Source: Thermoplasmata archaeon (lineage in GTDB: Archaea > Thermoplasmatota > Thermoplasmata > UBA10834). Taken from it: a DNA stretch of 64,000 nucleotides. The stretch lies in the NCBI GenBank assembly GCA_029864565.1, contig JAOTTD010000008.1:3857-67856 (forward strand), in the 5' to 3' direction. A model generated the notes under the pieces. That model ran no database searches and had not been told where the DNA came from. It worked only from the letters and a program-made list of their open reading frames with translations. This document shows positions 3,958 through 62,358 of this stretch, in pieces. A program made the translations under genes and the position numbers. The first letter of the stretch is position 1. The number at the start of each line of letters is the position of its first letter.

Positions 3958-5106
3958 TCAATCTAGCTCTTCGACCGGTGCTGCCTCACTCACGCCCGAC
4001 CGCTTTCGCCTCCGCCTCATGACCATAGCGACAATCACCAGTGACACCGTCACCACGCCAATCAACACCACCAATTCGGAATACTCTCGGATCCAATCGC
4101 GGACGCCACCAATGAATCCTGACTCAAATATTCCAGTGCTCGATTCGAAATCAATCTGATTCGTGCAGTTGTCGATGGCGATGATCGAATGTAGCATCAT
4201 GCCGTTGCCCGTTGTGAAGTAGGACGAATCGATGTCAACCGCCGTGCTATTGTCACCCTGATCCACGAGAACCTCTGAACCCCAGCGGTAGAACGCCTGG
4301 GTCACGCCATCCTCCTTAGCGAACAGTATCTCCTGCACGGGGTTTGGCGTTGCTCTGAACTCGTGCGGATATCCATTCTCGAACTTCCTCTCATCGATGG
4401 TTCCGGAAATCACCGTCGTTTCGGTATCGTTGTTGCCATCTGATTCCAGCAGCTCGAACATGTTGGTGGATGCACCACCCTGCAAGAACTGCTCGAGAAC
4501 GAAACTCTCGACGTCGATACATTCGTTGACGACGAGAGAGAAGTTCATCCTGAGCTGGGTGCCTCCGCCGACCACATACACCCCCTTCGAGTTCGAGTAT
4601 TCAACGGGATTCTCTGTGATCGAGAACCAAAATGAGAGAAGGGCCCAGTTTGACATCACGAGTGTCTCGTTCTCGGCGACGAGATAGGCGTTCAACTCAG
4701 ACCGCATGCTGAACGATGCATGTTCGCCAGATTGGCTGTTGTAGCCTTGGTCGATAGGGGTCATGTTCCACTCCACATGGTTCGAGTCCAAAAACGCTGT
4801 GAGAACGGCCTCCTCCGCATCGAACAAGCCATCTCCATCGCTATCATTGTGCGCGTGTATCCGCGGGAAGCTGACTTCAAATGTGGGACTGAAGGGATCG
4901 ATTTCGTGCCAGAAGATGACCCGGGGCCAATCGCGCGTTATCCTGACGGTGAAATTACCAGATACTATACTGACCTTCGCATCGTCGACGCTCACAAACA
5001 GCGTGTACTCTTCGGAACCGCTAGCTGCGAATTCAGAGAAGGCCGTTGTCGTCATTGCCAGACACGCAAATGCCACGAAGAGTCTCTTCGGGACGGTACC
5101 GCTCAC
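3958..5106 (-). CDS. secreted, C-terminally membrane-anchored protein (hypothetical)
   Basis: N-terminal signal-like segment RLFVAFACLAMTTTAFS. Contains a DSDGDGLFD Ca-binding-like motif and many N-x-S/T sequons. C-terminal TM LVVLIGVVTVSLVIVAMVM is followed by RRRRKR. Confidence 0.6.
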   Translation of the reverse strand: MSGTVPKRLFVAFACLAMTTTAFSEFAASGSEEYTLFVSVDDAKVSIVSGNFTVRITRDWPRVIFWHEIDPFSPTFEVSFPRIHAHNDSDGDGLFDAEEAVLTAFLDSNHVEWNMTPIDQGYNSQSGEHASFSMRSELNAYLVAENETLVMSNWALLSFWFSITENPVEYSNSKGVYVVGGGTQLRMNFSLVVNECIDVESFVLEQFLQGGASTNMFELLESDGNNDTETTVISGTIDERKFENGYPHEFRATPNPVQEILFAKEDGVTQAFYRWGSEVLVDQGDNSTAVDIDSSYFTTGNGMMLHSIIAIDNCTNQIDFESSTGIFESGFIGGVRDWIREYSELVVLIGVVTVSLVIVAMVMRRRRKRSGVSEAAPVEELD

Positions 5107-5171: not shown

Positions 5172-5816
5172 TCATTGGAGAGCTTGACCGACCTGGCCAC
5201 CTCCAAGCGTCCTGAGCCGCCTCATACGCGGGAACCCACCATCAACGATGGTGAATGGCACCCCGATGTAACCGTCCCCTCGCAACTTGAATGCCTCAAT
5301 CTCTCTGTTCAAGGGGTCTATTACGATGGCACAATGAAACGATTGACTGAACATTGCCTTCTGAGTTCGCATGTCGGTCCTCGATAGGAAGCATGTGTGG
5401 CCAGGATGTGAGTGATACCATCCAACCACGACATAGTCGAAATCCGCCCTGTCGAGGTCTGCAAAGAGCCTCGGCAAAGCCTCGGGGTCGAACTTTACCT
5501 TTGCAGGGGAGTTCTTCAAATCAGTCGTGCCGACATCTCTCACAATCGTATAGATCTCCCCTTTCCATGACCGAACCTCTCCGAGTAGAAGCCCCATGAC
5601 CTCGAGCATTTTGGGGGCGGCGTTCATGGACTGCTCAAGTATCTTGTTTTCAGCTAATGAGGATAGGTATACGTCGAACGTCTCACGAGTGGCACAGGTC
5701 GCCTTGTAACGCTTGGCAGCGTCGGGCGACAGCCATGCATGAGGTCTTGTTGCCGAAGGGGGCATGAGCTCTAGCACGGGCTTTCTGATTTCACCGACAA
5801 TCCTAGGTCTCCCCAT
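5172..5816 (-). CDS. JAMM/MPN+ metalloprotease, Rpn11/CSN5-like (putative Ubl-deconjugating/processing enzyme)
   Basis: Glu in LEVMGLLLGE plus VVGWYHSHPGHTCFLSRTDMRTQ (H-x-H-x7-S-x2-D). ATG 5816 follows the SD-like GGTGAGGT (GTG 5825 is the alternative start). Overlaps the E2 stop by 14 nt. Confidence 0.85.
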   Translation of the reverse strand: MGRPRIVGEIRKPVLELMPPSATRPHAWLSPDAAKRYKATCATRETFDVYLSSLAENKILEQSMNAAPKMLEVMGLLLGEVRSWKGEIYTIVRDVGTTDLKNSPAKVKFDPEALPRLFADLDRADFDYVVVGWYHSHPGHTCFLSRTDMRTQKAMFSQSFHCAIVIDPLNREIEAFKLRGDGYIGVPFTIVDGGFPRMRRLRTLGGGQVGQALQ

Positions 5817-6336
5817 TGACCTCACCGATTATTCGTATACTGCCTTCGCCTCGGTCCAAGGACAGAGGCGGAGTGTATCCCACTCTGTTGAAATGGGCAG
5901 CCGCCCTAGTGCAGGTGTCGCTGCCAAACGGATTCCTCGGATTCGGGTTTGCCAATAGCCACTCTATGCCTTTGAAGAATTCCAATAGGGTCGAGTTGAA
6001 GTCCCAGCACTCGAGGAGTCTGGTGCACACGTAGCCTCCGTCTTCGGGTGACATTATGTTCGGGTGAAAGATCGGCGTCCTCCACTTGACTATAGGTTTC
6101 TCAGCTGGGTACTCATCTGTAATCAACACAGCCATCCTGTGAACGTGTCTATGAACGAATCTGCCATCTTCCCATGATGGCCCTGGTACTCGCATGAAGG
6201 TGACGTGAATCAGGATTGGGAAGGAGGTGAGCGTGCAGTCTGATATCGAAATGTGATGGGTGAGTTCGCGTCGACATATTTCTATCTCGTTCTTGAGACG
6301 GATGCGCAGTATGTTGACGGGCAGGATTGTTGTCAA
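5803..6336 (-). CDS. ubiquitin-conjugating enzyme (E2/UBC-fold) homolog
   Basis: N-terminal helix RIRLKNEIEICRRE, then YPAEKPIVKWRTPIFHPNIMSPEDGGYVCTRLLECW...GIEWLLANPNPRNPFG (HPN motif, candidate catalytic Cys, Trp, Pro/Asn loop). The TTG start directly follows the Ubl TAG stop. Confidence 0.8.
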   Translation of the reverse strand: MTTILPVNILRIRLKNEIEICRRELTHHISISDCTLTSFPILIHVTFMRVPGPSWEDGRFVHRHVHRMAVLITDEYPAEKPIVKWRTPIFHPNIMSPEDGGYVCTRLLECWDFNSTLLEFFKGIEWLLANPNPRNPFGSDTCTRAAAHFNRVGYTPPLSLDRGEGSIRIIGEVNGET

Positions 6337-6585
6337 CTATCCGCCCTCTGGGTCTGGAACCAGCTCAAGCATGTCATCTTCTCTCACTCCGGCATCAGCT
6401 AGAGCCATTGTCCCCCTGAGCACCTTCTTCCCTTTCCTGACAACGTATGCCCCCATCTCCTTGTTCCAGAACGTTGCCGCGCTCTCAATCACCTCGTCGA
6501 TGGTGTTATCATTTTCGAGTTCCATTTCCACAGTCGCGCCGCTCTCTGCGTTCTTGACCTTTATCCTGAAGGGCAGGGGAACCAC
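6337..6585 (-). CDS. ubiquitin-like beta-grasp protein ending in Gly-Gly
   Basis: GTG at 6585 gives 82 aa: VPLPFRIKVKNAESGATVEMELENDNTIDEVIESAATFWNK...YVVRKGKKVLRGTMALADAGVREDDMLELVPDPEGG-stop. The longer ORF-track version overlaps E1 in another frame. Confidence 0.75.
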   Translation of the reverse strand: MVPLPFRIKVKNAESGATVEMELENDNTIDEVIESAATFWNKEMGAYVVRKGKKVLRGTMALADAGVREDDMLELVPDPEGG

Positions 6586-6637
6586 CAGAATCGTGACAAC
6601 CGTTGCAGCCTTAACGATTTCGGATACCTGTAGCCGG

Positions 6638-7474
6638 TCAATTGTGATGCACCAAGCAGTCTGGGTTTCGAGAAATTTCCAACTCCTCCATACGATTTTG
6701 TTTCCCGTCGTAATACAACATATTCGACAGCATAAGGTCATCCCTTCCAGACGTGTGCTTGGCAATCTCACGAACCATGATGGCGGCAAGAACACTGGTG
6801 GTCGTTATCTCCGCTGCCAACCTGGGCTCGTGAAAGACCGTCTCAACACCAGTACAGCTGAATCTCAGGCTAGCAACCTTAGCGTGAGACTTGTTCATTC
6901 CACACTGGAGGCATGCGCCATCGGGTGGCCTGACCACCATTACCCTGCCGGTCAGCCCCTCCATTCCACCGTCAACGTAAAGCTTTCCGGCGCGGTAAGA
7001 TTGCCCGTTTACGTGGGTTCGCGCAAGAACATTGTCGAGACATCCGAGGACGACATCGGAGCCCCTGAAAAGGTCTGACGCTGCTTCCTCAATCGGAGCC
7101 GTGACCGCCCTGGCTGAACGCCCCCCTGCGAGGCCGTTGATTCCATCGGCGACCAATTCCGCCTTGAAACGCTCATCCGCGGCGTCACTCTCCCTGAAGA
7201 ACAGACACCTGCTAAGGTTCGACACAGCCACGGTGTCCATATCCACAACAGTTATATTTCGAAAGCCCGAAAGAGCGAGATTCTTGCCGGCTTCGTTGCC
7301 AAGAGCACCGGCCCCGACCATGAGTACCTTCGTCTGGCTGATTGCATTCACATCCAACCAATCTATCCGGCGAGACCTATCGAATCTGTCTCCGTCGAAA
7401 TCGAATGGTCTAATCATCTCCTCCATTGGCAAGGGAAGAGACGATATCGCACAAATAACTTGAGTCAATTCCAA
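6638..7474 (-). CDS. E1-like ThiF/MoeB/Uba-family adenylyltransferase
   Basis: KVLMVGAGALGNEAGKNLALSG Rossmann loop, ITVVDMDTVAVSNLSRC, a CLQC...DCLVHH putative Zn site, and RFSCTG as candidate catalytic Cys. TTG 7474 overlaps the upstream gene by 10 nt. ATG 7426 is an alternative start. Confidence 0.85.
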   Translation of the reverse strand: MELTQVICAISSLPLPMEEMIRPFDFDGDRFDRSRRIDWLDVNAISQTKVLMVGAGALGNEAGKNLALSGFRNITVVDMDTVAVSNLSRCLFFRESDAADERFKAELVADGINGLAGGRSARAVTAPIEEAASDLFRGSDVVLGCLDNVLARTHVNGQSYRAGKLYVDGGMEGLTGRVMVVRPPDGACLQCGMNKSHAKVASLRFSCTGVETVFHEPRLAAEITTTSVLAAIMVREIAKHTSGRDDLMLSNMLYYDGKQNRMEELEISRNPDCLVHHN

Positions 7475-8598
7475 ACGAGTCTACCGTCGACCATCAATTG
7501 CTTCTCTCTGCGCGTTGCACCGTCAAAAATGGCGATGGTGGGCGATTTCACGAGGCCATCGAGGTGTATCAAAGCGTCTGCGTCTCCGTCATAGTTGCTG
7601 CCGATAGCGAAGTGACAGGTTCCGTACACCTTCTCGTCCTCGAGCATGTTCGCCACAATCTTCGCCTTCCGGTTGAGGCCAATGCCGAGTTCCCCGATTG
7701 CCCTGGCGTTCCTGCGATAATTCTCCGCCTCGGATGGCTTGATCTCTCCCTTTTTACCCATGCTCCGAGCATTCACCTCACCGGAGCGGATTGATTTCTT
7801 CAACTGATCCGCCTCCGAGGCTCCTGAAACCGACTTGATGAAACCGTCCTTCACCTCTACGACAATCGGCCTGCGGATGACGACCTCTCCCTCGTTCAAT
7901 GCCATCGATCCGTCGAAGGCTATAACTCCGTTCGTGGAGCCAATCGCAGGCGACACGTAGACCTCTCCTGAAGGTACGTTGCCCGCACTTCCAGGGTGTC
8001 TGAAATCGCCATCGTCTGACTTGGGAACACGGCCTTTCACGCCGACTGTAATGTCCGTCCCTGCGGGGGATGTCACTCTTATGGATTTAGCCTTGCTCAT
8101 TGCCCTTAACGTGCGCCTGCAATCATTCCTCAGGACGGAGTAGTCTATTGGCACAGTTCTGGAAAATGTGTCGATGGTGATTCCCGGTGACCAGAATGCT
8201 CTCATCTTGCCCTCGGAATAAAGCATGTCGAAGAGGTTGTCATAGCGTCGCTTCCCCTTGTACCCGTGTTTTAGGCCGAACCTGTCCATCCCGAGCCTAT
8301 CCTTGCTGATTGAGAGGACTATTTGCGGCTCTGCGGATAGAGCCTTGACAATCTCCTCCTCCGTGTAGTCGAACTGTCCTTTCTCTCCCTGGAACACAAG
8401 CACTGGGACCGCTTTCGCTTGCAGAGCCGCGTCGAACAATGACATTGCGATGTCACGCGTCTCCGGGTTTGGATTCGAGATAATCAGAAACCGTTCTCCA
8501 CGCTTCGCTGCGAGGACATCTTCCACCGCAGCTTTCGCAGCTCTGACCAACGACCGAGGATACGCCTTGCCGCTGCCAAAGCCAGGAACATCGGACAT
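7465..8598 (-). CDS. M29-family aminopeptidase (AmpS/PepS/aminopeptidase T-like)
   Basis: 377 aa. Family-like motifs: GERFLIISNPN, GEVYVSP, GVIAFDGS, IVVEVKDGFI, YGTCHFAIGSNY. Confidence 0.7.
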   Translation of the reverse strand: MSDVPGFGSGKAYPRSLVRAAKAAVEDVLAAKRGERFLIISNPNPETRDIAMSLFDAALQAKAVPVLVFQGEKGQFDYTEEEIVKALSAEPQIVLSISKDRLGMDRFGLKHGYKGKRRYDNLFDMLYSEGKMRAFWSPGITIDTFSRTVPIDYSVLRNDCRRTLRAMSKAKSIRVTSPAGTDITVGVKGRVPKSDDGDFRHPGSAGNVPSGEVYVSPAIGSTNGVIAFDGSMALNEGEVVIRRPIVVEVKDGFIKSVSGASEADQLKKSIRSGEVNARSMGKKGEIKPSEAENYRRNARAIGELGIGLNRKAKIVANMLEDEKVYGTCHFAIGSNYDGDADALIHLDGLVKSPTIAIFDGATRREKQLMVDGRLVWN

Positions 8599-8690
8599 AG
8601 AGGGTTAAGGTCTGACCTGGAACTTAAGTTTTGAGAGGCGCCCGTCTGTCTGTCGCGTTCGTCATGTTCGATTTTGGCCCGTTTGCACCT

Positions 8691-10148
8691 CTATCTGTCC
8701 AGGTAATCCGTCGGCACTGCCTTCTTAATGAGACTCTCATCGTACTTCGCGAGCAAGGATAGGATTTCCTTCTTCACATCAGCCTCCAGCTCAGCGCATC
8801 TGTGTTCCTTAAGCAACCGCTTCGCCTCCTTACTAGCGGCCACTCTCATAGGTTCGCCAACGCTTCCCGGCTCAGCTGGCAACATGGCTATCTTGGGCAG
8901 CAGGTTCTCGCTCCTGAAGTGCTTCAGCGTGTGTGAATCCTTCATGAAGTAACCACCGGGACCGACTCTTGCGATAGCATCATAAGCGAGCGTTGCGTCG
9001 TTGACGTCGATGCCTCTCCAAGCCCTGATCGTGTTCCGCCACAGTTCACAGTCCATGACGATCTGCTCGAGTGACTCGCATCCGGAGCGCTCGAAGCCTC
9101 CAATTCCGACCACCTGGTCCGCACCAGCCATAGCGGGTATCAACCCACTTATCGCCTTCTGGTAGCCGACCTCGAAACCAGGTCGGCATCCTGAAGCGGC
9201 TATTCCTCCGACTTGCGATGGCAGCCTGTATCTGCGTGCCATCTGGCATCCAGCGGCGTTTATTAGAGCTCCTTCAGTCGACCCGGAAAGGAACACACCG
9301 GTCCTCATGTCCATGGGCCCTGATTCCGAACTGTAGAGGATTGGGGCGCCAGGGGCAGCGAGCTCGGATATGACCGCGCCCGCGAGATTCTCCGCGTTTA
9401 CGAGGGTAGTTGTACCAACGAGTGACACAGGAGCGACGGACCCTGATATCGCCATGGAAAGATGAACGACCGGAAGACCTGCTCTGGCGAATTCAATCAC
9501 CGCATCGACATCGCCAGCTTCGTACCTAAGCGGAGTCATCGGAGTATGCGTGATTGAAATGATCGTTCTGCGCGCAAGCTCCTTCTCCGAGCCGACGATC
9601 GCCGCAGCGGCGTCTATCAGGAACCTGGTATCCTTCGGGTTGCCGGCACCGTGTTGCACATGCTTTCCCGTGAAGAACAGCGACGCGACGAATTCGTGGC
9701 AGTTCGAAACCTCCGGTGGAAGATCTGTCGCCACAACCTCTGGCCAGAAGAGCTCGACCTCTGGCATAGCATCGCAGACTACTGCAATGTCGACCAGGTC
9801 GCTTGCAGTAGATGGCCGCTTGATCTGCTTGTCAATGTCCCACATGTACGTAGGCTGACCGTCATTGACTCCTTGGGGATGATCAGCGGGAAGTCGGAGG
9901 TCATATCTCTTCTCTCGACCGCACATCAAGAACTCCTTTGGTGCTTTGGCCAAGGATTCCGTGACGAGCGATTCGGGTATCCTCGCCACCTCGCGTCTCT
10001 CGTCTACTTCCGCACCGTGGTCTTTCAGAATCCCCAGAACCGGCTTGCTAGTCACTTTTATGCCGACCTTCTCCAGAATCCGAATGGAGGTCTCGTGAAC
10101 GACATTCTCTTGCTCACTGGTCAATGGGTTGAAGACGGCTTTTGCCAA
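8691..10148 (-). CDS. MttB-superfamily methyltransferase (trimethylamine/quaternary-amine type), no in-frame amber codon
   Basis: 485 aa. Contains VHETSIRILEKVGIKV, LRYEAGDVDAVIEFARAGLPVVHLSMAISG, GADQVVGIGG, IVMDCELW. Paralogous to 31783..33249. Confidence 0.8.
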   Translation of the reverse strand: MAKAVFNPLTSEQENVVHETSIRILEKVGIKVTSKPVLGILKDHGAEVDERREVARIPESLVTESLAKAPKEFLMCGREKRYDLRLPADHPQGVNDGQPTYMWDIDKQIKRPSTASDLVDIAVVCDAMPEVELFWPEVVATDLPPEVSNCHEFVASLFFTGKHVQHGAGNPKDTRFLIDAAAAIVGSEKELARRTIISITHTPMTPLRYEAGDVDAVIEFARAGLPVVHLSMAISGSVAPVSLVGTTTLVNAENLAGAVISELAAPGAPILYSSESGPMDMRTGVFLSGSTEGALINAAGCQMARRYRLPSQVGGIAASGCRPGFEVGYQKAISGLIPAMAGADQVVGIGGFERSGCESLEQIVMDCELWRNTIRAWRGIDVNDATLAYDAIARVGPGGYFMKDSHTLKHFRSENLLPKIAMLPAEPGSVGEPMRVAASKEAKRLLKEHRCAELEADVKKEILSLLAKYDESLIKKAVPTDYLDR

Positions 10149-11869: not shown

Positions 11870-12988
11870 ATGAACGAAGAATTCGAGGTCACGCCTTACA
11901 GCGTCTCGGGCGACATCGACTACGACGAACTAGTCGAGAGGTTCGGAACAAAGAAGATTGACGATTCACTGATGGAGCGCTTCGCACGCCACGGGCCGAT
12001 TCACCCGATGCTCCGAAGGGGCATCTTCTACTCGCACAGGGATTTAGACTGGATTCTGAGCGAGTATGAGAAGGGGACAGGATTCACTCTTTACACAGGC
12101 AGAGGGCCATCTGGACCGGTCCATATCGGTCACACAATGCCTTGGATGTTCGCCAAGTACCTCCAAGACACCTTCAAGGCCAAGCTATGGTTCCAGCTTA
12201 CGGATGACGAGAAATTCATGTTTTACGATCACCTCTCTCTCGAGGAGGCAAAGAAGTGGGCTTATGACAACGCCCTTGACATAATCGCGCTCGGGTTCGA
12301 CCCCGACCTCACGAACATATTCTTGGACACCGAATACATCGGAACGATGTATCCCACTGCTGTCAGGGCGGCCAAGAAGATCAACTTCTCAACCATCAGA
12401 GCGGTGTTCGGATTCGACAACTCAAACAACATAGGCAGCATATTCTTCACGAGTATACAGACGGTGCCATGCTTCCTGGAATCAATCGCCCAAGGGAGGA
12501 ACGTCCCTTGTCTGATACCCTGCGGGATAGACCAAGATCCCCACTTCAGGGTGACCAGGGACATTGCCGAGGGGCTTGGATTCTACAAGCCAGCGCTTGT
12601 GCACGCCAAGTTGATGCCATCCCTCGGAGGCTCCGAGAAGATGTCGACTTCGACTAAGATGAATGACACGATATTCATGACCGATGATGAGAAGACTGCC
12701 AAGAAAAAGGTCATGAACGCCTTCACGGGTGGCAGAGTGTCCGTAGATGAGCAGAGGAAGGAAGGCGGGGACCCCGAGATCTGTGCGGTCTACCAGTATA
12801 ATCTATATCATTTCGAGCCGGACGATACGAAGTTGGCACAGCTGCATGCTGACTGCAAGTCCGGCAAGATTCTCTGTGGTGAGTGCAAAGCACGGCTGTT
12901 CGAGAAGATCTGGAAGTTCCTCGAGCACCATCAGCTCGAGCGTGAGAAAGCCAAGGACAAGGTAAACGACTTCTTGATCCGCGACTGA
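11870..12988 (+). CDS. trpS: tryptophanyl-tRNA synthetase (archaeal/eukaryotic type)
   Basis: Class I motifs TGRGPSGPVHIGH (HIGH) and EKMSTS (KMSKS). The N-terminus VTPYSVSGDIDYDELVERFGT is typical of archaeal TrpRS. Confidence 0.85.
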   Translation: MNEEFEVTPYSVSGDIDYDELVERFGTKKIDDSLMERFARHGPIHPMLRRGIFYSHRDLDWILSEYEKGTGFTLYTGRGPSGPVHIGHTMPWMFAKYLQDTFKAKLWFQLTDDEKFMFYDHLSLEEAKKWAYDNALDIIALGFDPDLTNIFLDTEYIGTMYPTAVRAAKKINFSTIRAVFGFDNSNNIGSIFFTSIQTVPCFLESIAQGRNVPCLIPCGIDQDPHFRVTRDIAEGLGFYKPALVHAKLMPSLGGSEKMSTSTKMNDTIFMTDDEKTAKKKVMNAFTGGRVSVDEQRKEGGDPEICAVYQYNLYHFEPDDTKLAQLHADCKSGKILCGECKARLFEKIWKFLEHHQLEREKAKDKVNDFLIRD

Positions 12989-13045
12989 TAGGCCAAACGC
13001 TCATTAAAGAGCTCGACCCTCTCTATCACGAGAGGTGGAGGTTCG

Positions 13046-13429
13046 TTGATAATCAGACGTATCGCGACTGTCGCGAACGACGTCACGGAGGATGTCGACG
13101 ACTGGTCGAGTGTGGAGTCGAAACTCGTCTTCGAGAGGGAGTATGTCGAGGGGCTCTATAAGCTCAATAAATTCGACCATGTCTTGGTCATATTCGGTTT
13201 TCACAGGAAGCGGAAGGTGGCGATGAAAGTTCACCCGATGCACGACCCCACGAAGCCTCTGGTCGGGGTGTTCGCATCTCGGTCGCCCAAGAGGCCGAAC
13301 AGAATAGGGTTGACTAGAGTAGAGCTGATCAGCGTTAAGGGCAACATCGTGACGGTCAAGGGGTTGGACGCGTATGACGGCTCACCAGTCTTCGATGTTA
13401 AGCCACCGGCCGACGAGATAGACTACTGA
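13046..13429 (+). CDS. TsaA/TrmO-like (UPF0066, YaeB family) domain protein
   Basis: FDHVLVIFGFH...VFASRSPKRPNRIGLTRVELISVKGNIVTVKGLDAYDGSPVFDVKP. TTG start preceded by GGTGGAGGT. Confidence 0.7.
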   Translation: MIIRRIATVANDVTEDVDDWSSVESKLVFEREYVEGLYKLNKFDHVLVIFGFHRKRKVAMKVHPMHDPTKPLVGVFASRSPKRPNRIGLTRVELISVKGNIVTVKGLDAYDGSPVFDVKPPADEIDY

Positions 13430-13485
13430 TGAACCGCACGCCAGTGGAAAAAGTAAATAAGCCGCACGTCCAATGAGGCCCGCGC

Positions 13486-15015
13486 ATGACCGAACACGAT
13501 ATCATAGATCGGCTGAGCTTCCTGGAGAAGAAGGTGATCATCGCACTTCGTGAGCTGGACTGTCCCACACCCGAGGAGGTACTGACCGAGGCGGGGCTGA
13601 ACCAGCTGGTTGAGGTCATGAACGCTGCCTCTTGGCTGCAGGCAAAGGGGCTTATTACGATAGAGGAGAAGATTACCAGGAAGTACTCTCTCAAGAGCTC
13701 GGAGAACGCCCGGAAGGAGCTCCCAGAGAAGACGGTGACCCGAACCATTCTTACAGTGTTCAATGGCAAGGCGACGACATCGCAGCTGAAGGGCTCGGAC
13801 ACATTCAAACCATCAGAGCTGCAGATAGCCCTTGGATGGATACGAAAGAAGGGATGGGGGGAATTCTCTAAGGAGGGCAGCGACACCATCGTCATTGTGA
13901 CCCAGAAGGGGCGAGACGCGCTCGACACCGAGGGCGAAGACGAGCGACTGATCAAGCAGCTCATAGACGGCGACCTCATGGAGGAAGATGTCGATATGGA
14001 CGCAATCGGCCAGCTCAAGCAGAGAAAGGATTTCCTCTCGGAGAGGCTGGTGACGGAGAGACGGTTGGCCCTGACCGAGAGCGGCTCCAAGATAGCCGCC
14101 CTCGACATCGATATAAAGGAGGAAATAGGGCAGCTGACCCCCGAGCTGATAGCCTCCGGCGGATGGCGGGACGTCGAGATTCGGAGGTACGACGTGAAGG
14201 CGTTCGCCCCCGTGATCTATGGAGGCAGGAGACATCCGATTACGCTTCTGATCGAGAAAATCAGGAACGCCTTCCTCAACATGGGATTTTCCGAGATCAC
14301 CGGCGACTATTTCGAGAGTGCCTTCTGGAACATGGACGTCCTGTTCACAGCGCAAGACCATCCCGCCAGGGAATTGCAGGACACATTCTATCTGTCCAAC
14401 CCCGACAAGGTCGATCTTTCAAACGATGCTGAGTTAGTGGACATCGTAAGGCAGGTGCACGAGAATGGTTGGAAGACCGGCTCGTTGGGCTGGAGATACG
14501 CCTGGAGTCTTGAGGAGGCTCAGAGGACACTTCTGCGGACGCACACCACCGTGAACACTATCCGCAGGATAGCGGAGGATCCCAAGTTGCCGTTCAAGGT
14601 CTTCTCAATAGGCAGGGTCTTCAGGAACGAAGCCATGGATTCGACGCACCTTCCGGAATTCGTCCAGATCGAGGGAATCGTGTGCGAAGAGGACGCCAAC
14701 TTCGGCATGCTCTGCACGCTCCTGAAGGAGTTCTACAGGCGGATGGACATACCCAAGATACGGATCAGGCCATCGTACTACCCATATACGGAACCGTCTC
14801 TGGACGTGGAGATATTCTTCAACGATCAATGGATGGAACTTGGTGGGGCGGGCATATTCAGGCCTGAGGTCACGGAGCCGCTTGGCGTGCATGCGCCCGT
14901 GCTGGCTTGGGGCTTCGGGCTGGAACGGCTGGCGATGCCAGTCTGGGGCCTCAACGATATCAGGGACATATATATCTCCGACATCGATTGGCTGAAAAAG
15001 ATGCCGCAGGTCTGA
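13486..15015 (+). CDS. pheS: phenylalanyl-tRNA synthetase alpha subunit (archaeal type)
   Basis: N-terminal wHTH repeats, then the class II core HPARELQDTFY, FRNE...THLPEFVQIEG, GAGIFRPEV, AWGFGLERLAM. Confidence 0.9.
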   Translation: MTEHDIIDRLSFLEKKVIIALRELDCPTPEEVLTEAGLNQLVEVMNAASWLQAKGLITIEEKITRKYSLKSSENARKELPEKTVTRTILTVFNGKATTSQLKGSDTFKPSELQIALGWIRKKGWGEFSKEGSDTIVIVTQKGRDALDTEGEDERLIKQLIDGDLMEEDVDMDAIGQLKQRKDFLSERLVTERRLALTESGSKIAALDIDIKEEIGQLTPELIASGGWRDVEIRRYDVKAFAPVIYGGRRHPITLLIEKIRNAFLNMGFSEITGDYFESAFWNMDVLFTAQDHPARELQDTFYLSNPDKVDLSNDAELVDIVRQVHENGWKTGSLGWRYAWSLEEAQRTLLRTHTTVNTIRRIAEDPKLPFKVFSIGRVFRNEAMDSTHLPEFVQIEGIVCEEDANFGMLCTLLKEFYRRMDIPKIRIRPSYYPYTEPSLDVEIFFNDQWMELGGAGIFRPEVTEPLGVHAPVLAWGFGLERLAMPVWGLNDIRDIYISDIDWLKKMPQV

Positions 15016-15029: not shown

Positions 15030-17465
15030 TCAGTCCAATCTGGCGACCTTTCGAAGCTCGGCGCCTGCCCTTGAGGCGATGTCATCTGCGGATATCGACT
15101 CAGAGAGGGCGATTGACTCCCGAAGCAAACCGGCCGCGCGCTCATGCTCCCCGCGCTCTGTGAGGAATACGCCAAACTCCACTTTCTTCTCGGCAAGTGC
15201 CCTTTGAGCTCCTGTGCCCTCGAGAGCCTTTATGCTCTCGGCGTGATACTCCTCACTCTGCTCCAGGTTTCCAGACAACCGCTCAATCGCTCCGAGCTTC
15301 GAGTAGGCGGACGACACGCCCAACGAGTCCTCGAGTTCCGCGAACACCTCGAGAGCCTCGAAACACTTCTCCCTCGCATCCGATTTGTTCCCCGACTTGA
15401 CGAGCACATCCGCCAAGGACATCAGGACGTCCGCCCTCATTCGCGGCTGTCCAGTATCCATAGACAGACGGACGGCATTCTCCAGATAAGACCGCGCATC
15501 GTCGACCCTTTCCAGGTGGACGCTTGCGTCGCCCATCTTCGCGTACGCGCTCGCGAGGTCGACTGGGCCGAAGCCTGCGGCGCACTTCAAGAAGTGCTCG
15601 ATCGCCTTTTCGTGTTCTCCCCGCCCAATGAGGACGTCTCCCAGCTCAAGATGCGCCTTGAGCATGCCCTTCTGATCCATCGCCGACAAGGAATCTTGTG
15701 CGCTTCGACTAAGCAGGTCCTCGGCCTTTGCGTGGTCGCCCATCTTGAACTCGATTACGCCGAGGCCCCTGAGTGCCTTCGCCCTCAGCTGCGGAGAATC
15801 CCCCACCTGGGACAAAGCGTCCGTCAACAACCTCGATGCCTCCTTCAGCTCGCCGCGACCGCTCAGTATCATGCCCATCCCGATTAGGGCTTCGGCTCGA
15901 AGGCCATCAGCGTCCTCCTTGGATACCATCTCGAGTATCCGCCATGCGGCATCGTAGTCGCCGAGCAGGCTGGCGAGCCTCGACTGGATGAGCATCACGC
16001 CGGGCCTGTATCTTGGCCTTGACGGCTCGTAGTCCTCAAGCTGCTGCCATAGACTCAGGACGTTGCAGCCGTCCAACAAATCCTCACCGAGGCGAGCCAT
16101 GAGCATCTCGGCCTCCAAGCCCCTGCTTGACTTCAGCAGGTGCAGCAGGCGTTCATGAGGGTTGTCCGATCGAAGATAGTAGTCGGCTGCAATGCTATGC
16201 CATCTTCGCCGCTCCTCGGGAGTCATATGGCCATAAACGAAATCACGTATCGAGGCGTGAATCTCAAACTTCCCAGGAACGACCTCCCTGAGCATCGATC
16301 CGCGCCTGACCCCTCTGAGGCCGCGAGGGATTGCTTCCGCCGCGAAAGGCATCTGGAATACTGATGCGAGCTGTAGCAGCGACTTCTGCTCCGTCGGGAG
16401 CCCTTCGTAGAACCGTTCTTCGAAGAACCGGGACAGCTGATACCGAGCTTCCCTCGGAGTGGATTCCGTGACCATCTCCAACGACAGCGGATGGCCGTTC
16501 ACCATGTTCACAAGACTCCTCCCTATGCGATTGCTAATGCCTCTTGCCTTCAAGAGTTCCGTTGCGGAGACCATGTCGAGACCGCTCAGCTCGAGTTCGG
16601 TCACTTCGCCCTTCGCAACGACCTCCGACTTGTCGTAAAGGCTTGCGCCGGTTTCGATTGTGACGATCATCTTGCTTGCGCCGCCACTGTGTCGGAACAT
16701 CCGCAGGAATTCCTGTATCTCCTCTGAAGCGTCGGCATCGTCAAACGCGAATATGTAGCCGTTCTCGGTCAGGGTTTCCCTGAGGAGGTAGCTGATCTCG
16801 CCCAGCTCGAAAGCCCCCGAAGCCAAGTAGGCCTCGAGGCGCTTGCTGCCATTCTCTGAGAAGAACGCACCCAGGGAATCTGCAATGTTCCTCGGCATGT
16901 CCCAAGGCTTGACGGCGTACCAGAAGATCCTCAGCTCCGAGGATTCCGACAGCATCTTCACCACAAGCGTGGTCTTTCCAATGCCGGAAATGCCTTTGAC
17001 GACAAGCAGCCTGCGGTTCGGATCATGTAGTGCCCGACCGAGCATGTCCAACTCCCGCTCTCTGCCGAAGAAATACTTCAGAGAAGGCAGGGGCGATGAC
17101 CGATATGCCTTCCTTCCCCTAACGGGGGAAGCATCAGCGGAGACCTTCGCCGCGTCCACCATTGCGTCGATCTCGTTGTCCATGACGTACTGATGGATAG
17201 CCGAAGCACGGGCTTTGCCGTCGTGCGTCAGGAGGTAGACCTTCCTCCTGGTCTTCCCTCTCCTGACATGCGACAGTCGCTCCTCCACCATCCCTGACGC
17301 CTTAAGCTTCTTCAGTTCGATGGCCGCATGCGCCCTCGATATGGTACAGGACTGAGATATCCCGTCCTGTGTCAAATGAAATGGCACCTCGTACTTGTCC
17401 TCGTATTTGGTGAAGGATTGCAGATGATACAGTATCCGTTCGGAGACTGTTAGTGAACCACCCAT
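15030..17465 (-). CDS. wHTH - P-loop ATPase (archaeal ATPase/STAND-like) - TPR repeat regulator
   Basis: N-terminal wHTH (ISRAHAAIELKKLKASGMVEE...KVYLLT), Walker A VVKGISGIGKTTL, and long C-terminal TPR-like repeats. ATG 17465 lies 25 nt after a TATA box, so the ORF-track extension to 17510 is rejected. Confidence 0.7.
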   Translation of the reverse strand: MGGSLTVSERILYHLQSFTKYEDKYEVPFHLTQDGISQSCTISRAHAAIELKKLKASGMVEERLSHVRRGKTRRKVYLLTHDGKARASAIHQYVMDNEIDAMVDAAKVSADASPVRGRKAYRSSPLPSLKYFFGRERELDMLGRALHDPNRRLLVVKGISGIGKTTLVVKMLSESSELRIFWYAVKPWDMPRNIADSLGAFFSENGSKRLEAYLASGAFELGEISYLLRETLTENGYIFAFDDADASEEIQEFLRMFRHSGGASKMIVTIETGASLYDKSEVVAKGEVTELELSGLDMVSATELLKARGISNRIGRSLVNMVNGHPLSLEMVTESTPREARYQLSRFFEERFYEGLPTEQKSLLQLASVFQMPFAAEAIPRGLRGVRRGSMLREVVPGKFEIHASIRDFVYGHMTPEERRRWHSIAADYYLRSDNPHERLLHLLKSSRGLEAEMLMARLGEDLLDGCNVLSLWQQLEDYEPSRPRYRPGVMLIQSRLASLLGDYDAAWRILEMVSKEDADGLRAEALIGMGMILSGRGELKEASRLLTDALSQVGDSPQLRAKALRGLGVIEFKMGDHAKAEDLLSRSAQDSLSAMDQKGMLKAHLELGDVLIGRGEHEKAIEHFLKCAAGFGPVDLASAYAKMGDASVHLERVDDARSYLENAVRLSMDTGQPRMRADVLMSLADVLVKSGNKSDAREKCFEALEVFAELEDSLGVSSAYSKLGAIERLSGNLEQSEEYHAESIKALEGTGAQRALAEKKVEFGVFLTERGEHERAAGLLRESIALSESISADDIASRAGAELRKVARLD

Positions 17466-17490
17466 GCAGCAGAACGAACGAGGATTTCCG

Positions 17491-17500
17491 TATATAAAAA
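17491..17500 (-). promoter_or_regulatory. TATA box for a leaderless transcript of 15030..17465
   Basis: Minus strand reads TTTTTATATA, then 25 nt, then ATG (17465). Confidence 0.5.
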
Positions 17501-17527
17501 CAACTGTCACATGCAGCGGCCAGTAGC

Positions 17528-31782: not shown

Positions 31783-33249
31783 GTGAATAGCATGACAATC
31801 GCCGCCATCAGCCTGCTGTCGAACAAGGACATCGATAAGGTGCACGAGGCGTCGCTGCGGATACTCGCCGATGCTGGAGTCAGGGTCGAAAGCGCCGCAG
31901 TGACGAAGACTTTGAAGGACGCTGGCGCCAAGGTGGACGAGACCAAGGATCTCGTCTATCTGAGCGAGGACATCGTCGACCGCTCCGTTGCGAGCGCGCC
32001 CAAAAAGATCAGGATTTGCTCCAGAGGCGGGAGGGACTTCATCATCCCTGGAGAAGGCACCCAGATTGTCTCGACGGACGGGCAGCCACCCGCGGTGTTC
32101 GATGCGGAGACCGGGAAGAAGAGAGCGTCCACGCTCCAGGACCTCAAGGAGATGATGATCCTCGCGGACGCGTTGCCTGAAGTGGGCTTCATCTGGCCTA
32201 CGGTCATTGCGAACGACATGCCTTCCGATAGGTCGTCGTTCTACGAGTTCCTCGCAGCCATCACTTACTCGTCGAAGCACATCCAGCACGGAGCAGTCTC
32301 AGCCGAGGAGGCGAACTTCCAAATCGATGTCTGCTCCGCAATATTGGGATCTAGAGAGAGCCTCAAGGAGCGCCCGATATTCTCAGACGTGAGCACCCCG
32401 ATATCCCCTCTCAGGTACGACGCTGGCGAGGCGGAGGCTATCGGTATCCTCGCCAAGGCGGGCGTACCAGTGGTCCATCTGTCGATGGCCATTGCAGGGG
32501 TCGTGACGCCCGCGTCAGTCGCGGGCTCCCTCGCGGTCATCAACGCCGAGAACCTCTTCGGCTTGACGATCACTCAGACGGCAGCGGAGGGCGCACCCAG
32601 CATCTACTCATCGTTCTCAGGCGTGATGGACCTGAAATCCGGCGTCTTCCTCTGTGGCACCCCAGAGGGGGTGCTCATGGACACTGCTGCTATTGAGATG
32701 GCGAGACACTACGGCGTGCCGTCATGCGCCGGAGGCCCGTCTAACGCCGCGCGTTCGCTCTCCTCTGAGGCGGGCGCTGAAGGCGCCATCACGACGATGG
32801 CTTCCCTCCTTGCAGGGGCCGACATGATGGTGGGCCTCGGAGGGCTCGACAGGGCGGGTATGATGTCCAAGGAGAAACTCGTGATGGACTGCGAGGTCTG
32901 GAGATGGCTTACAAGAGTGCGCGAGGGTATCGAGATCGATGACGCGACGCTCGGAGTGGACGCCATATCGAGACAGGGGCCGGGCGGATCGTTCCTTTCC
33001 GACATACACACAGCGAAGCACCTGCGGAAGGAGTTCATGGTACCCCAAGTGACGATGTACCACGTCAATCGCGAGCCTGACCGGAAGGAGGACGAGTTCC
33101 TTGCGTACGCCAGGAATCGCGTCAAGGACCTGCTGGCAACGCACAGACCGCCGCTACTCGACGCTGAGACAGCATCCAGGGTCGGAAAAATCGCCACGAG
33201 ATACGGCATCGTCATGCCAGATGGATCCCAGATATTCGAGCACGCGTGA
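31783..33249 (+). CDS. MttB-superfamily methyltransferase paralog, no in-frame amber codon
   Basis: 488 aa. Contains VHEASLRILADAGVRV, LRYDAGEAEAIGILAKAGVPVVHLSMAIAG, GADMMVGLGG, LVMDCEVW. Start is GTG 31783 or ATG 31792. Confidence 0.8.
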   Translation: MNSMTIAAISLLSNKDIDKVHEASLRILADAGVRVESAAVTKTLKDAGAKVDETKDLVYLSEDIVDRSVASAPKKIRICSRGGRDFIIPGEGTQIVSTDGQPPAVFDAETGKKRASTLQDLKEMMILADALPEVGFIWPTVIANDMPSDRSSFYEFLAAITYSSKHIQHGAVSAEEANFQIDVCSAILGSRESLKERPIFSDVSTPISPLRYDAGEAEAIGILAKAGVPVVHLSMAIAGVVTPASVAGSLAVINAENLFGLTITQTAAEGAPSIYSSFSGVMDLKSGVFLCGTPEGVLMDTAAIEMARHYGVPSCAGGPSNAARSLSSEAGAEGAITTMASLLAGADMMVGLGGLDRAGMMSKEKLVMDCEVWRWLTRVREGIEIDDATLGVDAISRQGPGGSFLSDIHTAKHLRKEFMVPQVTMYHVNREPDRKEDEFLAYARNRVKDLLATHRPPLLDAETASRVGKIATRYGIVMPDGSQIFEHA

Positions 33250-33255: not shown

Positions 33256-34959
33256 TCAAGCGCGTCTTTTGAACAGTTTCTCGAGGTCGTCTGGTGTCAA
33301 GGTGATCATCGTGGGTCTCCCGTGCTCGCATGTGTATGGGCTTTCCGTAGCCATCAGCTCGGACAATAGCTGTATCATTTGAGAGTGCGACAGCTTCTGC
33401 CCTGCCCGGATAGATGTGTGGCACGCGACCCGCCATATGAACTCCAGTCCCATCCTCTTCGGCACCGCCATGTCCGCGAGCTCAGCGAGTATGTCCCTCA
33501 ATGCCCTCTCGCCCTGCGCCGCACCAAGGACTGTCGGCACGGAGCGCAGTGCGTAGGATTCGCCGCCGAAATGCTCCAGCCTGAATCCCATCTGAAGGAG
33601 CGTCTCGCCGTACTCCTCCACCATCCGCGATTCGGTGGACGTGAAACCGAGAACAAGCGGAGCCAGTAGCTCTTGCGAAATCCCGGTGCCGGCCTCTATG
33701 GATTCCAAGAGCTTCTCGTAGACAATCCTCTCCGATGCAGCGTGCTGGTCTATCAGCAACAGGCTGCCGCCCGATTCGGCGAGGATGTAAGTGTCCATGA
33801 CCTGGGCAAGTGGGTGGATGCGCGTACCCTCACCCGACATTGCCTCCTTCTCCGGTATCTGAAGGGTCGATTGATTTGGCGCCGGAATCGTGCCCGCAGG
33901 GGCGGGCATTGACGCCTCGAAACCCTCTGAAAAGCGCGTGAGGTCATACTTGAAGGACAAATCGGGACCTTCAAGAGCGTCCACCAACCCCCTCTCGAGC
34001 ACCCCGAGGACGAGCTTCTCATCGTCGAACCGGACCTCCCTCTTCGTAGGATGCACATTCACGTCTATCGAGGAGCTGTCGACAAAGATCTTCACGACTC
34101 CGATAGGGTATCTGTCCTTCATGATGCGTGAGCCGAATGCGCTCACGACCGATGAGACTATCTTCCTGCTTTTCACCGGCCTGTGATTGACGAACAGCCT
34201 CACGTCTGAAGGAGATGAACGAGTGTGCTCGAGCCGCGCTAAGTGAATATCGACGCGAACACCCTCCCCCTCGGCCTGGGCGCCAATCATGTTGGCGGCG
34301 ACCTTGCGCCCGAAAGCCAGCGTGAGAGCCCCCTCCATGCCCTCCGCAGCCGGATGCGAGAGCAATCCCCTGCCGTCGGAAACGAGCTTGAACGAGATCG
34401 CAGGGCGGCACAGTATGAAATCCATAACCGATTCCTTGCAGTGAGCCAGCTCGACCGCTGCGTACTTCATCTGCTTGCGCCGGGCGGGCATATTGCTGAA
34501 TAGGTCCTCCACCACAATCTCAGTCCCCTCCGGACAACCCACGGCGGAGACGGACACGATGCGTCCTCCGTCCAGAACTATCTCCACGCCATCGGTTCGG
34601 TCATGCTCCCTCGTCCTGACGGTGACACGCGCGACGGAGGCAATCGATGACAGGGCCTCACCCCTGAAGCCGTATGTGTCGAGGGTCCGGAGGTCGTCGA
34701 TTGACTTGATCTTGCTCGTGGCATGACGTTGGAACGCTGCTTCGGCGTCTTCCGCCGACATGCCACAGCCGTTGTCCTTCACTGAGATACTCTTCCGTCC
34801 ACCCTCCTCGACAGAGACGACGATCTCGGCTGCGCCTGCATCAAGGGCGTTCTCGAGCAGCTCCTTGACGACGGAAGAAGGCCTCTCGACCACCTCGCCG
34901 GCCGCGATCTTGTCTGCGGTGTTACTGTCGAGTACCCTTATCCTTCCCAACGATCTCAT
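33256..34959 (-). CDS. mutL: DNA mismatch repair protein MutL
   Basis: IRVLDSNTADKIAAGEVVERPSSVVKELLENALDAGA (GHKL ATPase), DNGCGM, GFRGEALSSI, and a C-terminal dimerisation region with DQHAASERIVYE. Confidence 0.92.
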   Translation of the reverse strand: MRSLGRIRVLDSNTADKIAAGEVVERPSSVVKELLENALDAGAAEIVVSVEEGGRKSISVKDNGCGMSAEDAEAAFQRHATSKIKSIDDLRTLDTYGFRGEALSSIASVARVTVRTREHDRTDGVEIVLDGGRIVSVSAVGCPEGTEIVVEDLFSNMPARRKQMKYAAVELAHCKESVMDFILCRPAISFKLVSDGRGLLSHPAAEGMEGALTLAFGRKVAANMIGAQAEGEGVRVDIHLARLEHTRSSPSDVRLFVNHRPVKSRKIVSSVVSAFGSRIMKDRYPIGVVKIFVDSSSIDVNVHPTKREVRFDDEKLVLGVLERGLVDALEGPDLSFKYDLTRFSEGFEASMPAPAGTIPAPNQSTLQIPEKEAMSGEGTRIHPLAQVMDTYILAESGGSLLLIDQHAASERIVYEKLLESIEAGTGISQELLAPLVLGFTSTESRMVEEYGETLLQMGFRLEHFGGESYALRSVPTVLGAAQGERALRDILAELADMAVPKRMGLEFIWRVACHTSIRAGQKLSHSQMIQLLSELMATESPYTCEHGRPTMITLTPDDLEKLFKRRA

Positions 34960-44974: not shown

Positions 44975-45253
44975 TCAGTTTTTTTCGTCCTTGAGTTTCT
45001 TCGCGACACTTAGAGTCTCGCTCTTCGCCTTCGAAACGCCCTTCTTGCCTACGCCCACCACCTTCTTGAACAGCGGCTTCGTCTCTCGCACAATAGCTTC
45101 TGTCGCGTGCACCCCTGCCTCGATGACCTCGCCCGTCACCGTCGTCACCTTCTTCGTTCCTCTGTCGACGACGCTCTTGCTCGGGGCACCACCGCAATCG
45201 GCGCAGCTAGCCGCGTCGCCGATCTCCTTACCACATCTCGAACATTTCGCCAT
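44975..45253 (-). CDS. small zinc-ribbon protein (hypothetical)
   Basis: 92 aa. MAKCSRCGKEIGDAASCADCGG (CxxC-x9-CxxC) followed by a Lys-rich tail. Confidence 0.5.
   Translation of the reverse strand: MAKCSRCGKEIGDAASCADCGGAPSKSVVDRGTKKVTTVTGEVIEAGVHATEAIVRETKPLFKKVVGVGKKGVSKAKSETLSVAKKLKDEKN
44979..44985 (+). terminator. oligo-T run directly after the + strand stop codon (candidate archaeal terminator)
   Basis: TGATCAG followed by TTTTTTT. The two convergent genes have back-to-back stop codons (TGA/TCA at 44972-44977). The T-run doubles as Lys/Asn codons of the minus-strand gene. Confidence 0.3.
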
Positions 45254-62314: not shown

Positions 62315-62358
62315 TTATCGATGGACAGTGTGTTCACGGTCCTCCGAGTAGGGTTTGC

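Follow-up and report, generated by a model that had tools for sequence, protein, structure and literature searches.

An archaeal operon of Thermoplasmatota encoding E1, ubiquitin-like, E2, and Rpn11-like JAMM proteins, predicted to form a reversible ubiquitin-type tagging cascade

Results

A four-gene operon on a Thermoplasmata chromosome

A 64-kb stretch of a Thermoplasmata archaeon chromosome, which we call the window and to which all coordinates refer, carries four minus-strand open reading frames (ORFs) that run in the same direction with abutting or overlapping ends and encode an E1 (activating enzyme), a ubiquitin-like modifier (Ubl), an E2 (conjugating enzyme), and a JAMM metalloprotease. 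The cassette had been noticed in an earlier reading of the DNA alone (the original prediction); it lies where that reading placed it and contains the motifs quoted there, and we have refined the starts of the E1 and JAMM genes. Profile matches, solved structures, predicted folds, invariant catalytic residues, and operon order all agree with the proposal that this is a self-contained module for Ubl conjugation and deconjugation. The four genes are the following.

6638..7426, minus strand: E1, a minimal Ubl-activating enzyme of ThiF/MoeB size, 262 residues (Pfam ThiF, E = 3.2e-45)
6337..6585, minus strand: Ubl, an 82-residue ubiquitin-fold modifier with a GTG start, ending in PDPEGG and then TAG
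5803..6336, minus strand: E2, a UBC-fold conjugating enzyme, 177 residues (Pfam UQ_con, 46.9 bits, E = 2.8e-12, cut-off 27)
5172..5816, minus strand: JAMM/MPN+ metalloprotease, Rpn11/CSN5-like, 214 residues (Pfam JAB/MPN, 48.9 bits, cut-off 22.5)

Alignment of orthologues places the E1 start at ATG 7426 (262 residues) rather than at TTG 7474, and the JAMM gene starts at ATG 5816, overlapping the 3′ end of the E2 gene by 14 nt. The TTG start of E2 stands immediately 3′ of the TAG stop of Ubl (0 nt between). Apart from a 52-nt spacer between E1 and Ubl, the gene junctions across the cassette measure 0 nt or are overlaps of 8 or 14 nt, an arrangement consistent with translational coupling. The G+C content of the cassette does not differ from that of its flanks.

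The E2 is a canonical UBC protein

The 177-residue protein had been proposed to adopt a UBC fold, and UQ_con is the sole Pfam family reported for it at E<=0.1, with no match to any of the prokaryotic families Prok-E2_A to Prok-E2_E. It matches 241 solved E2 sequences, the best being Ubc9 (1.4e-8), with the HPN motif and the active-site cysteine aligned. An AlphaFold2 model with a predicted local distance difference test (pLDDT) score of 80.6 finds its best Foldseek matches among eukaryotic class-I E2s (Naegleria UBC, Rad6, UBE2E1, and UbcH5). We found 154 homologues; across 39 family members the HPN motif, the segment D-G-G-Y-V-C, Trp111, and an NPNP loop are invariant, and the N-terminal helix is strongly conserved. 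In eukaryotic E2s, this helix forms the E1/E3-binding surface.

6058..6066, minus strand: E2 HPN motif, in 39/39 sequences, aligned to the HPN of UbcH5B and Ubc9
6022..6036, minus strand: E2 GYVCT with the catalytic Cys104, unchanged, conserved in orthologues, and aligned to UBE2D2 Cys85 and the Ubc9 active-site Cys
5821..5838, minus strand: E2 C-terminal tail motif (S)IRIIGE, basic-hydrophobic, with R-x-R-[IV]-[IV]-G in 71/74 distinct E2 tails

The tail that bears the last of these motifs (residues 161-177) is disordered in the model, with pLDDT <50. A pattern of the form R-x-[RK]-I-[VIL]-x-[DE] is common to this tail and to the N-terminus of the JAMM protein (MGRPRIVGE..), and this shared motif may be a means of docking for both enzymes, with the acidic Ubl or E1 as the partner.

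The Ubl has a ubiquitin fold and, in the window, a mature C-terminus

The reading of the 82-residue ORF as ubiquitin-like is borne out both by its predicted structure and by the selection acting on its frame. The AlphaFold2 model (pLDDT 84.6) has the topology beta-beta-alpha-beta-beta-3_10-beta, the beta-grasp as in ubiquitin, and Foldseek ranks Caldiarchaeum ubiquitin (6fnn_C) and human ubiquitin first, both at a template modelling (TM) score of ~0.8, with SUMO and Hub1 next. At the profile level, the Pfam families ubiquitin, YukD, and Rad60-SLD all match below threshold, there is no match to a ThiS/MoaD profile, and NCBIfam has no family for either Ubl or E2. Identity to human ubiquitin is 28%, and an invariant G-K-K (K53) aligns with its G47-K48. 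The protein is acidic, with an isoelectric point (pI) of 4.5, and its tail is acidic and proline-rich in comparison with the LRLRGG of ubiquitin.

6340..6357, minus strand: Ubl C-terminal tail PDPEGG, predicted adenylation/conjugation site, unchanged across Thermoplasmatota orders

All 174 homologues of the Ubl that we found (73-98% identity) end in PDPEGG and none is annotated; the tail is likewise present in 87/87 related loci. Within those 87 loci, differences fall on the third codon position far more often (3771) than on the other two (1117 and 607), and synonymous codon changes (2685) outnumber non-synonymous ones (1522), indicating that the frame is under purifying selection. The Ubl is the most conserved component of the cassette, with a median identity to the window protein of 78%, compared with 66% for E2, 59% for E1, and 53% for JAMM.

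Because PDPEGG directly precedes the stop codon, the Ubl of the window would be made in its mature form. The same is true of 81/87 close loci (TAG in 66, TAA in 15), and the remaining 6/87 (L007, L036, L038, L039, L046, and L052) encode 1-2 residues past the GG (N, RL, or SL). Longer extensions occur in more distant relatives: the Ubl of the Methanomassiliicoccus luminyensis type (L091 7760-8017) ends PDPEGG-AHAPSR, a 6-residue propeptide, and that of the Sysuiplasma type (L093 4022-4279) ends PDPEGG-EWQSL, a 5-residue propeptide. These differences in tail length suggest that precursor processing varies by lineage. In-frame Ubl-E2 fusions with a GG junction are also found among metagenomic relatives. 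The metagenomic fusions are of three kinds (proteins P0252 and P0311; P0269, P0273, P0280, P0283, and P0294; and P0247 and P0259). Some are proteins of 223-232 residues in which a GG-less Ubl-like domain is joined to an E2-like domain that lacks the catalytic cysteine and so resembles a UEV, and others are long E2-JAMM fusions, one of which ends in a zinc ribbon and has a degenerate JAMM motif. From the tail sequence, trypsin treatment of Ubl conjugates would be expected to leave a long ...EDDMLELVPDPEGG-type remnant.

The E1 consists of a single adenylation domain

A Pfam scan of the longer 278-residue E1 ORF (extending to TTG 7474) found a ThiF domain spanning the whole protein and no match to E1_UFD, E2_bind, or SCCH. 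The E1 is thus a single adenylation domain, without a UFD/E2-binding domain and without an inserted catalytic-Cys domain. Its closest solved structures are the NEDD8 E1 subunit UBA3 (77.9 bits, residues 47-194) and then Uba1; Escherichia coli MoeB matches over the full length at 66 bits, and the bacterial proteins Cap2 and BubCD score no higher than about 27-30 bits. Against the curated NCBIfam models, it falls far under the cut-offs for ThiF (95 vs 275 bits), MoeB (77 vs 266), and UbaA (66.7 vs 450).

7292..7315, minus strand: E1 nucleotide-binding loop GAGALGNE (GxGxxG), unchanged in 9 aligned orthologues
6902..6913, minus strand: E1 CLQC, first half of a predicted structural Zn site, with C..C kept in all orthologues
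6848..6859, minus strand: E1 SCTG, candidate thioester Cys191 in the crossover-loop region, with R[FY]SCTG invariant in aligned orthologues
6647-6658, minus strand: E1 C-x2-H, second half of the predicted Zn site, with the C-terminal C..H kept in all orthologues

A D-x-D...SNL-x-R motif is also unchanged across orthologues. The C-x2-C and C-terminal C-x2-H pair is a probable Zn site, an arrangement known from MoeB, the SUMO E1, and the NEDD8 E1 (PMC10557695). Cys191 is a candidate catalytic residue because of where it lies with respect to the CxxC, a placement shared with MoeB, ThiF, and UbaA. The loop that carries it is retained as RYSCTG in contigs of the M. luminyensis type and as TYTCTG in those of the Sysuiplasma type.

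The JAMM protease resembles Rpn11

The JAMM protein had been described as eukaryote-like, and this holds: in a Pfam scan of a 217-residue ORF, Prok-JAB scored 32.6 bits, below JAB/MPN, and among solved structures it matches yeast Rpn11 and the Rpn11 homologue of Caldiarchaeum (6fjv) best, both at 8.9e-15, ahead of CSN5, AMSH, and BRCC36. No archaeal JAMM1-type or bacterial Cap3-type structure matched at E<=1, and the NCBIfam desampylase model gave 40.7 bits (cut-off 130).

5373..5414, minus strand: JAMM zinc-site motif HSHPGHTCFLSRTD (H-x-H-x7-S-x2-D), unchanged in orthologues and aligned residue for residue with Rpn11 and CsRpn11
5592-5606, minus strand: JAMM catalytic Glu within LEVMG, invariant in orthologues
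5790..5810, minus strand: JAMM N-terminal motif RPRIVGE, similar to the E2 tail motif, with P-[RK]-[IVL]-[IVLM] in 67/74 distinct N-termini

The cassette is conserved in order and in genomic setting

An E2-profile HMMER search of 1.84 billion representatives returned 28 at E<=1e-30 and 86 at E<=1e-10, and a metagenome scan identified 364 loci that encode a relative, 80 of which were retrieved for comparison. The order E1>Ubl>E2>JAMM is unbroken in 90 loci, far more often than chance would give. Where the contig leaves room for the test, E1 is adjacent in 62/65 loci and JAMM in 74/74. Insertions between E1 and Ubl were observed in L071 (2626-4069, 1.4 kb) and L084 (1809-6749, 5 kb).

The euryarchaeal context that had been suspected is supported by the closest genomes, which are Thermoplasmata metagenome-assembled genomes (MAGs). 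They share a neighbourhood of MttB, an M29-like peptidase, E1, Ubl, E2, JAMM, and a membrane protein, followed on the other strand by SIS and apurinic/apyrimidinic (AP)-endonuclease-type genes. Named members of the E2 family include Methanomethylophilaceae and Ca. Sysuiplasma, and a search seeded with distant E2s reached a RefSeq entry, 'ubiquitin-conjugating enzyme E2 [Methanomassiliicoccus luminyensis]', from a cultured methanogen. Contigs encoding exactly this M. luminyensis E2, as well as a Sysuiplasma-like contig, carry E1-Ubl-E2-JAMM. Identity to the window proteins is 50% (E1), 59% (Ubl), 51% (E2), and 44% (JAMM) in the former and 31-38% in the latter. On both contig types the cassette is flanked by tryptophanyl- and phenylalanyl-tRNA synthetase genes (TrpRS/PheRS) on one side and by AP-endonuclease, SIS, or L18e-L13-S9 genes on the other, and the window holds the matching block, with S9, L13, and L18e at 948-2155 and TrpRS and PheRS at 11870-15015. 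The presence of the cassette in the same housekeeping block across orders points to an old, vertically inherited core-chromosome locus in several Thermoplasmatota orders. An E2-profile search of 2.9 million viral contigs found no relative. Among the nearest E2 representatives outside the family, one name was recovered, Theionarchaea.

No E3 is linked to the operon

The original prediction saw no E3 near the cassette, and we reach the same result over a larger area. A six-frame scan for a RING-type Cys/His pattern gave 0 matches in the 64-kb window and in 95 related loci (839 kb), with a crude pattern that, not being a profile search, would miss U-box, HECT, or novel E3s; Pfam annotation of the called neighbours in the related loci also returned no RING, U-box, or HECT family. 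The E1-Ubl insertions of L071 and L084 were considered as a source of an E3 and rejected, as they contain membrane zinc-ribbon proteins and a large beta-helix surface protein. With no E3 linked to the operon, targeting would be either intrinsic to the E2 or dependent on an unlinked factor. The E2 residues that contact RING domains are a Phe/Tyr in loop 4 and W-S-P in loop 7 in UbcH5 and in the Caldiarchaeum E2 (PMC5654768). At the positions of the UbcH5 contacts, the window family has W-D-F-x-S in place of the loop-7 'SPA' and a variable residue (A/M/V/Y) in place of the loop-4 Phe.

Neighbouring genes and other features of the window

Two further genes adjoin the cassette.

7465..8598, minus strand: M29-like peptidase gene (Pfam Peptidase_M29), directly upstream of E1 and outside the conserved core
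3958..5106, minus strand: membrane-anchored 382-residue protein, downstream, a clade-specific neighbour with a median identity of 38%

We rejected both as components of the system, since they are absent beside the cassette in L008-L010, L091, and L093; more distant members keep the four genes and lose these two neighbours, and the four genes are therefore the unit. The M29-like gene is probably co-transcribed with the cassette in this clade. An A/T-rich element, AAACTTAAGTT, lies at 8626-8631, ~30 nt upstream of the M29-like ATG, and could be the archaeal TATA box of a leaderless M29-E1-Ubl-E2-JAMM transcript. No element comparable to AAACTTAAGTT is visible in the 52-nt E1-Ubl spacer.

The window also contains two uninterrupted MttB-family (trimethylamine methyltransferase-like) genes, at 8691-10148 and 31783-33249, which, having no in-frame amber codon, are non-pyrrolysine members of the superfamily. 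Pyrrolysine read-through of the Ubl TAG stop was considered for the window and rejected, as both MttB homologues are uninterrupted and E2 lies in another frame. Elsewhere the window holds ordinary housekeeping genes (ArgRS, MutS/MutL, transporters, and ribosomal protein S3Ae). Bacterial-type MutL and MutS genes stand in tandem on the minus strand of this archaeal chromosome at 33256-37582. An 826-residue protein (15030-17510) joins an AAA_16 (STAND-type) ATPase region to a long array of TPRs, and an ArsA/Get3-like ATPase (62263-63603) has a C-terminal HSP20-like domain. A 650-residue protein (43022-44974) combines an N-terminal Cys-rich region with PUA, PAPS-reductase, and 4Fe-4S domains; on the opposite strand next to it lies a 94-residue zinc-ribbon protein (44978-45259) with no Pfam match. 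Neither is RING-like.

Discussion

Gene content, folds, motifs, conservation, and synteny together indicate that the operon probably encodes a complete, reversible ubiquitin-type tagging cascade and is a vertically inherited housekeeping locus of Thermoplasmatota. The biochemical steps, the quaternary state of E1, the targets, and the physiological role we infer from homology. The 262-residue E1, probably a MoeB-like homodimer, would adenylate Gly82 of the acidic 9-kDa Ubl, which would then be moved onto the conserved Cys of the R-F-S-C-T-G loop of E1 and passed by transthioesterification to Cys104 of the HPN-type UBC E2. The E2 would form isopeptide bonds with lysines of target proteins, and it may also modify the Ubl itself, given the alignment of the invariant G-K-K with G47-K48 of ubiquitin. 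The Rpn11-like JAMM would remove the tag. The precursor Ubls and Ubl-E2 fusions of relatives suggest a second role for JAMM in processing, so that in sister lineages in which the Ubl has 1-6 extra residues or is fused to E2, the protease may mature the precursor as well. In Caldiarchaeum, cleavage of pro-ubiquitin by the Rpn11 homologue has been shown experimentally, and E1 and E2 alone carry out ATP-dependent auto-ubiquitylation (PMC5654768).

How targets are chosen is the point at which alternatives fare best. The operon could belong to a canonical E1-E2-E3 cascade in which targets are selected by an E3 (RING, U-box, or another kind) whose gene lies elsewhere in the genome, the operon lacking only the linked copy known from Caldiarchaeum and Asgard archaea. 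The strong conservation of the E2 N-terminal helix is in keeping with this, as are the small RING protein that Caldiarchaeum needed for substrate ubiquitylation in vitro (PMC5654768) and the unlinked RING proteins that occur in some archaea (PMC4327156). The scans around the cassettes, which yielded no RING-pattern ORF in the window or in the 839 kb and no E3 Pfam family among the neighbours, argue the other way, as does the lack of conservation, in this E2 family, of the loop residues, including the WSP motif, through which UbcH5 and the Caldiarchaeum E2 contact RING domains. On balance, we consider an unlinked E3 possible, though unlikely. We also speculate, with considerable doubt, that the cassette might be a minimal ubiquitylation machine without any E3, and as such an intermediate in evolution, with sampylation by E1 alone on one side and the E1-E2-E3 systems of eukaryotes and Asgard archaea on the other. 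In that case, the E2 tail and the JAMM N-terminus might dock on Ubl or E1 through their R-x-[RK]-I-[VIL] motif and so replace the UFD and RING contacts, and a Ub-E1-E2-Rpn11 module older than the TACK/Asgard lineage would follow if the locus goes back to the ancestor of its euryarchaeal phylum.

Several points weigh against the proposal of a complete, housekeeping cascade. The replaced RING-contact loops fit independence from an E3 but could also point to a non-canonical partner. By analogy with Caldiarchaeum, in which RING was needed for modification of a substrate, not for auto-modification, an unlinked E3 may be needed here too. With neither a UFD nor a separate Cys domain, E1 would have to recruit E2 by some other means. 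In 3/65 testable loci, E1 is separated from, or absent beside, Ubl, and one lineage has Ubl-E2-JAMM with no adjacent E1. Solo E2s exist as well: P0258, a more distant E2 with 44% identity to that of the window, lies between SRP19 and a YjbQ-family gene, with no E1, Ubl, or JAMM adjacent in either L094 (5269-5754) or L095 (2856-3341). Finally, the cascade of this family is deduced from genes and predicted folds.

Whether the system acts in proteostasis or in virus defence had been left undecided, and the evidence now leans clearly away from defence: the cassette sits in a housekeeping block, no viral copy of it was found among the viral contigs, and neither E2 nor Ubl has a PADLOC match. A role in proteostasis or regulation is most likely. 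That the operon is a Bil-like or CBASS-like anti-virus system tagging phage or virus proteins appears very improbable to us, even with the likeness to BilABCD (Type I/II) in having E1, E2, a single ubiquitin-like beta-grasp Ubl, and a JAB-family deubiquitinase without a dedicated E3 (PMC10557695) and with the weak matches of E1 to CBASS (cyclic oligonucleotide-based antiphage signalling system) E1-E2 models. Bil operons have the order Ubl-E2-DUB (deubiquitinase)-E1, an E1 composed of IAD, AAD, and CYS domains, and a diverged E2 (CEHH in Type II), and are sparsely distributed, located in defence islands, and anti-phage (PMC10557695). Unlike these, the Thermoplasmatota loci have the order E1-Ubl-E2-JAMM in all 90 cases, an E1 with one 262-residue adenylation domain, and a canonical UQ_con E2, and their synteny across orders, within aminoacyl-tRNA synthetase and ribosomal-protein genes, is the opposite of a patchy defence island. 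The resemblance to Bil cassettes seen at first is therefore superficial, extending neither to gene order, nor to E1 architecture, E2 type, or genomic setting. A PADLOC scan returned only weak E1-domain matches (<=43.6 bits, to E1-E2 models) and JAB matches, and nothing for E2 or Ubl, with the limit that PADLOC 2.0 (2023) may not contain Bil models. The characteristic CBASS protein, Cap2, is an E1-E2 fusion encoded next to a CD-NTase, whereas here E1 and E2 are separate genes and the window contains no CD-NTase.

The archaeal SAMP/UbaA/JAMM1 (sampylation) and Urm1/ELSA systems lack an E2 and use ThiS/MoaD-like modifiers that also serve as sulfur carriers. The operon shares with these systems a MoeB-size E1 (probably a homodimer with a crossover-loop Cys), a small beta-grasp GG modifier, and a JAMM that would reverse the modification. 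It differs in that E1 and JAMM fall far under the UbaA and desampylase cut-offs and a canonical E2 is obligatorily linked. We consider it hardly probable that E1 and Ubl serve mainly as a sulfur carrier of the ThiS, MoaD, SAMP, or Urm1 kind for cofactor or tRNA thiolation, with conjugation secondary or absent. In favour are the MoeB-like size and architecture of E1, its full-length alignment with MoeB (66 bits) and the UbaA model, and the dual function of SAMP and Urm1 (PMC4571572). Against it, E1 is remote from the curated ThiF, MoeB, and UbaA families (e.g., 66.7 vs 450 bits) and lacks a rhodanese domain; the Ubl matches no ThiS/MoaD profile, and its model is nearest to Ub, SUMO, and Hub1; and sulfur transfer would offer no role to a UBC E2 that is obligatorily linked and keeps its active site intact, nor to an Rpn11-like isopeptidase.

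The closest counterparts of the tagging cascade that we propose are the eukaryote-like ubiquitylation operons of Caldiarchaeum and Asgard archaea (Nunoura 2011, PMC3082918; Hennell James 2017, PMC5654768; Fuchs 2018, PMC6043591). As in those operons, the modifier has a ubiquitin fold and a C-terminal GG, the E2 has a UBC fold with HPN and Cys, an Rpn11-like JAMM is adjacent, and the E1 is of ThiF type, its adenylation domain being closest to UBA3/Uba1. The likeness to Caldiarchaeum goes further: its ubiquitin (CsUb) is the best structural match of the Ubl model, the JAMM scores equally against CsRpn11 and yeast Rpn11, and sister lineages of the window have Ubl precursors that require processing. 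The differences are equally clear. Unlike the Caldiarchaeum and Asgard operons, that of Thermoplasmatota has no small RING-finger E3 in it or nearby, and its host phylum is euryarchaeal, as opposed to their TACK and Asgard hosts. The Caldiarchaeum E1 is reported to have a UFD and a Cys domain, and the 262-residue Thermoplasmatota E1 has neither; the Caldiarchaeum JAMM is divergently transcribed, whereas the window JAMM is co-directional with E2 and overlaps it; and the window Ubl is made mature, with the tail PDPEGG in place of TRTVGG or LRLRGG.

Parts of the cassette are already on record. The 'JAMM-3' class comprises JAMMs that resemble Rpn11/CSN5 more than JAMM-1/2 and are encoded, without an E3, in operons together with Ub, E1, and E2 (Fuchs 2018, PMC6043591), and archaeal 'Cluster III' operons have an E1 without the C-terminal ubiquitin-like domain (Hennell James 2017, PMC5654768 supplement). 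The Thermoplasmatota cassette fits JAMM-3 and Cluster III by description only, as the published member lists are figures, and its E2, which matches only UQ_con and eukaryotic E2 structures, is unlike the Cluster III E2s, which grouped with bacterial E2-like proteins. The M. luminyensis JAMM, WP_019177758, was identified as one of two archaeal Rpn11 orthologues and placed with eukaryotic Rpn11/Rpn8, outside archaeal JAMM1/2, as a possible ancestor of the proteasome lid, and its adjoining E1, Ubl, and E2 were not described (Fort et al. 2015, PMC4453063). The Ubl encoded beside it differs from that of the window in its 6-residue propeptide, which the latter lacks. A deep-branching Thermoplasmatota clade also appears in an E2/UEV tree (Lu et al. 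2023). In the open-access literature we found no paper on the Thermoplasmatota cassette itself, whether to describe it or to test it. The original prediction had allowed that this might be an already catalogued family in the lineage with a sulfur-carrier role only. The first part proved partly true, as the E2 is named in RefSeq, the JAMM is published, and operons without an E3 have been noted, and the sulfur-only part was not supported. Given the RefSeq name, PMC4453063, and PMC6043591, that prediction overrated the novelty of the locus. With its parts catalogued and its class noted in the literature, the discovery is a modest, incremental one, and its interest lies in the pairing of a minimal E1 with a canonical E2, in vertical inheritance throughout the phylum, and in occurrence in a cultured organism.

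Accounts of the origin of ubiquitylation centre on Caldiarchaeum and Asgard archaea. The locus described here brings together a eukaryote-type E2, an Rpn11-like deubiquitinase, and a minimal MoeB-size E1, with no linked E3, as a stable, inherited core operon in a euryarchaeal phylum. Because that phylum includes M. luminyensis, a cultured methanogen of the human gut, E3-free target choice by an E2 and the role of tagging in a proteasome-bearing archaeon would both be experimentally approachable.

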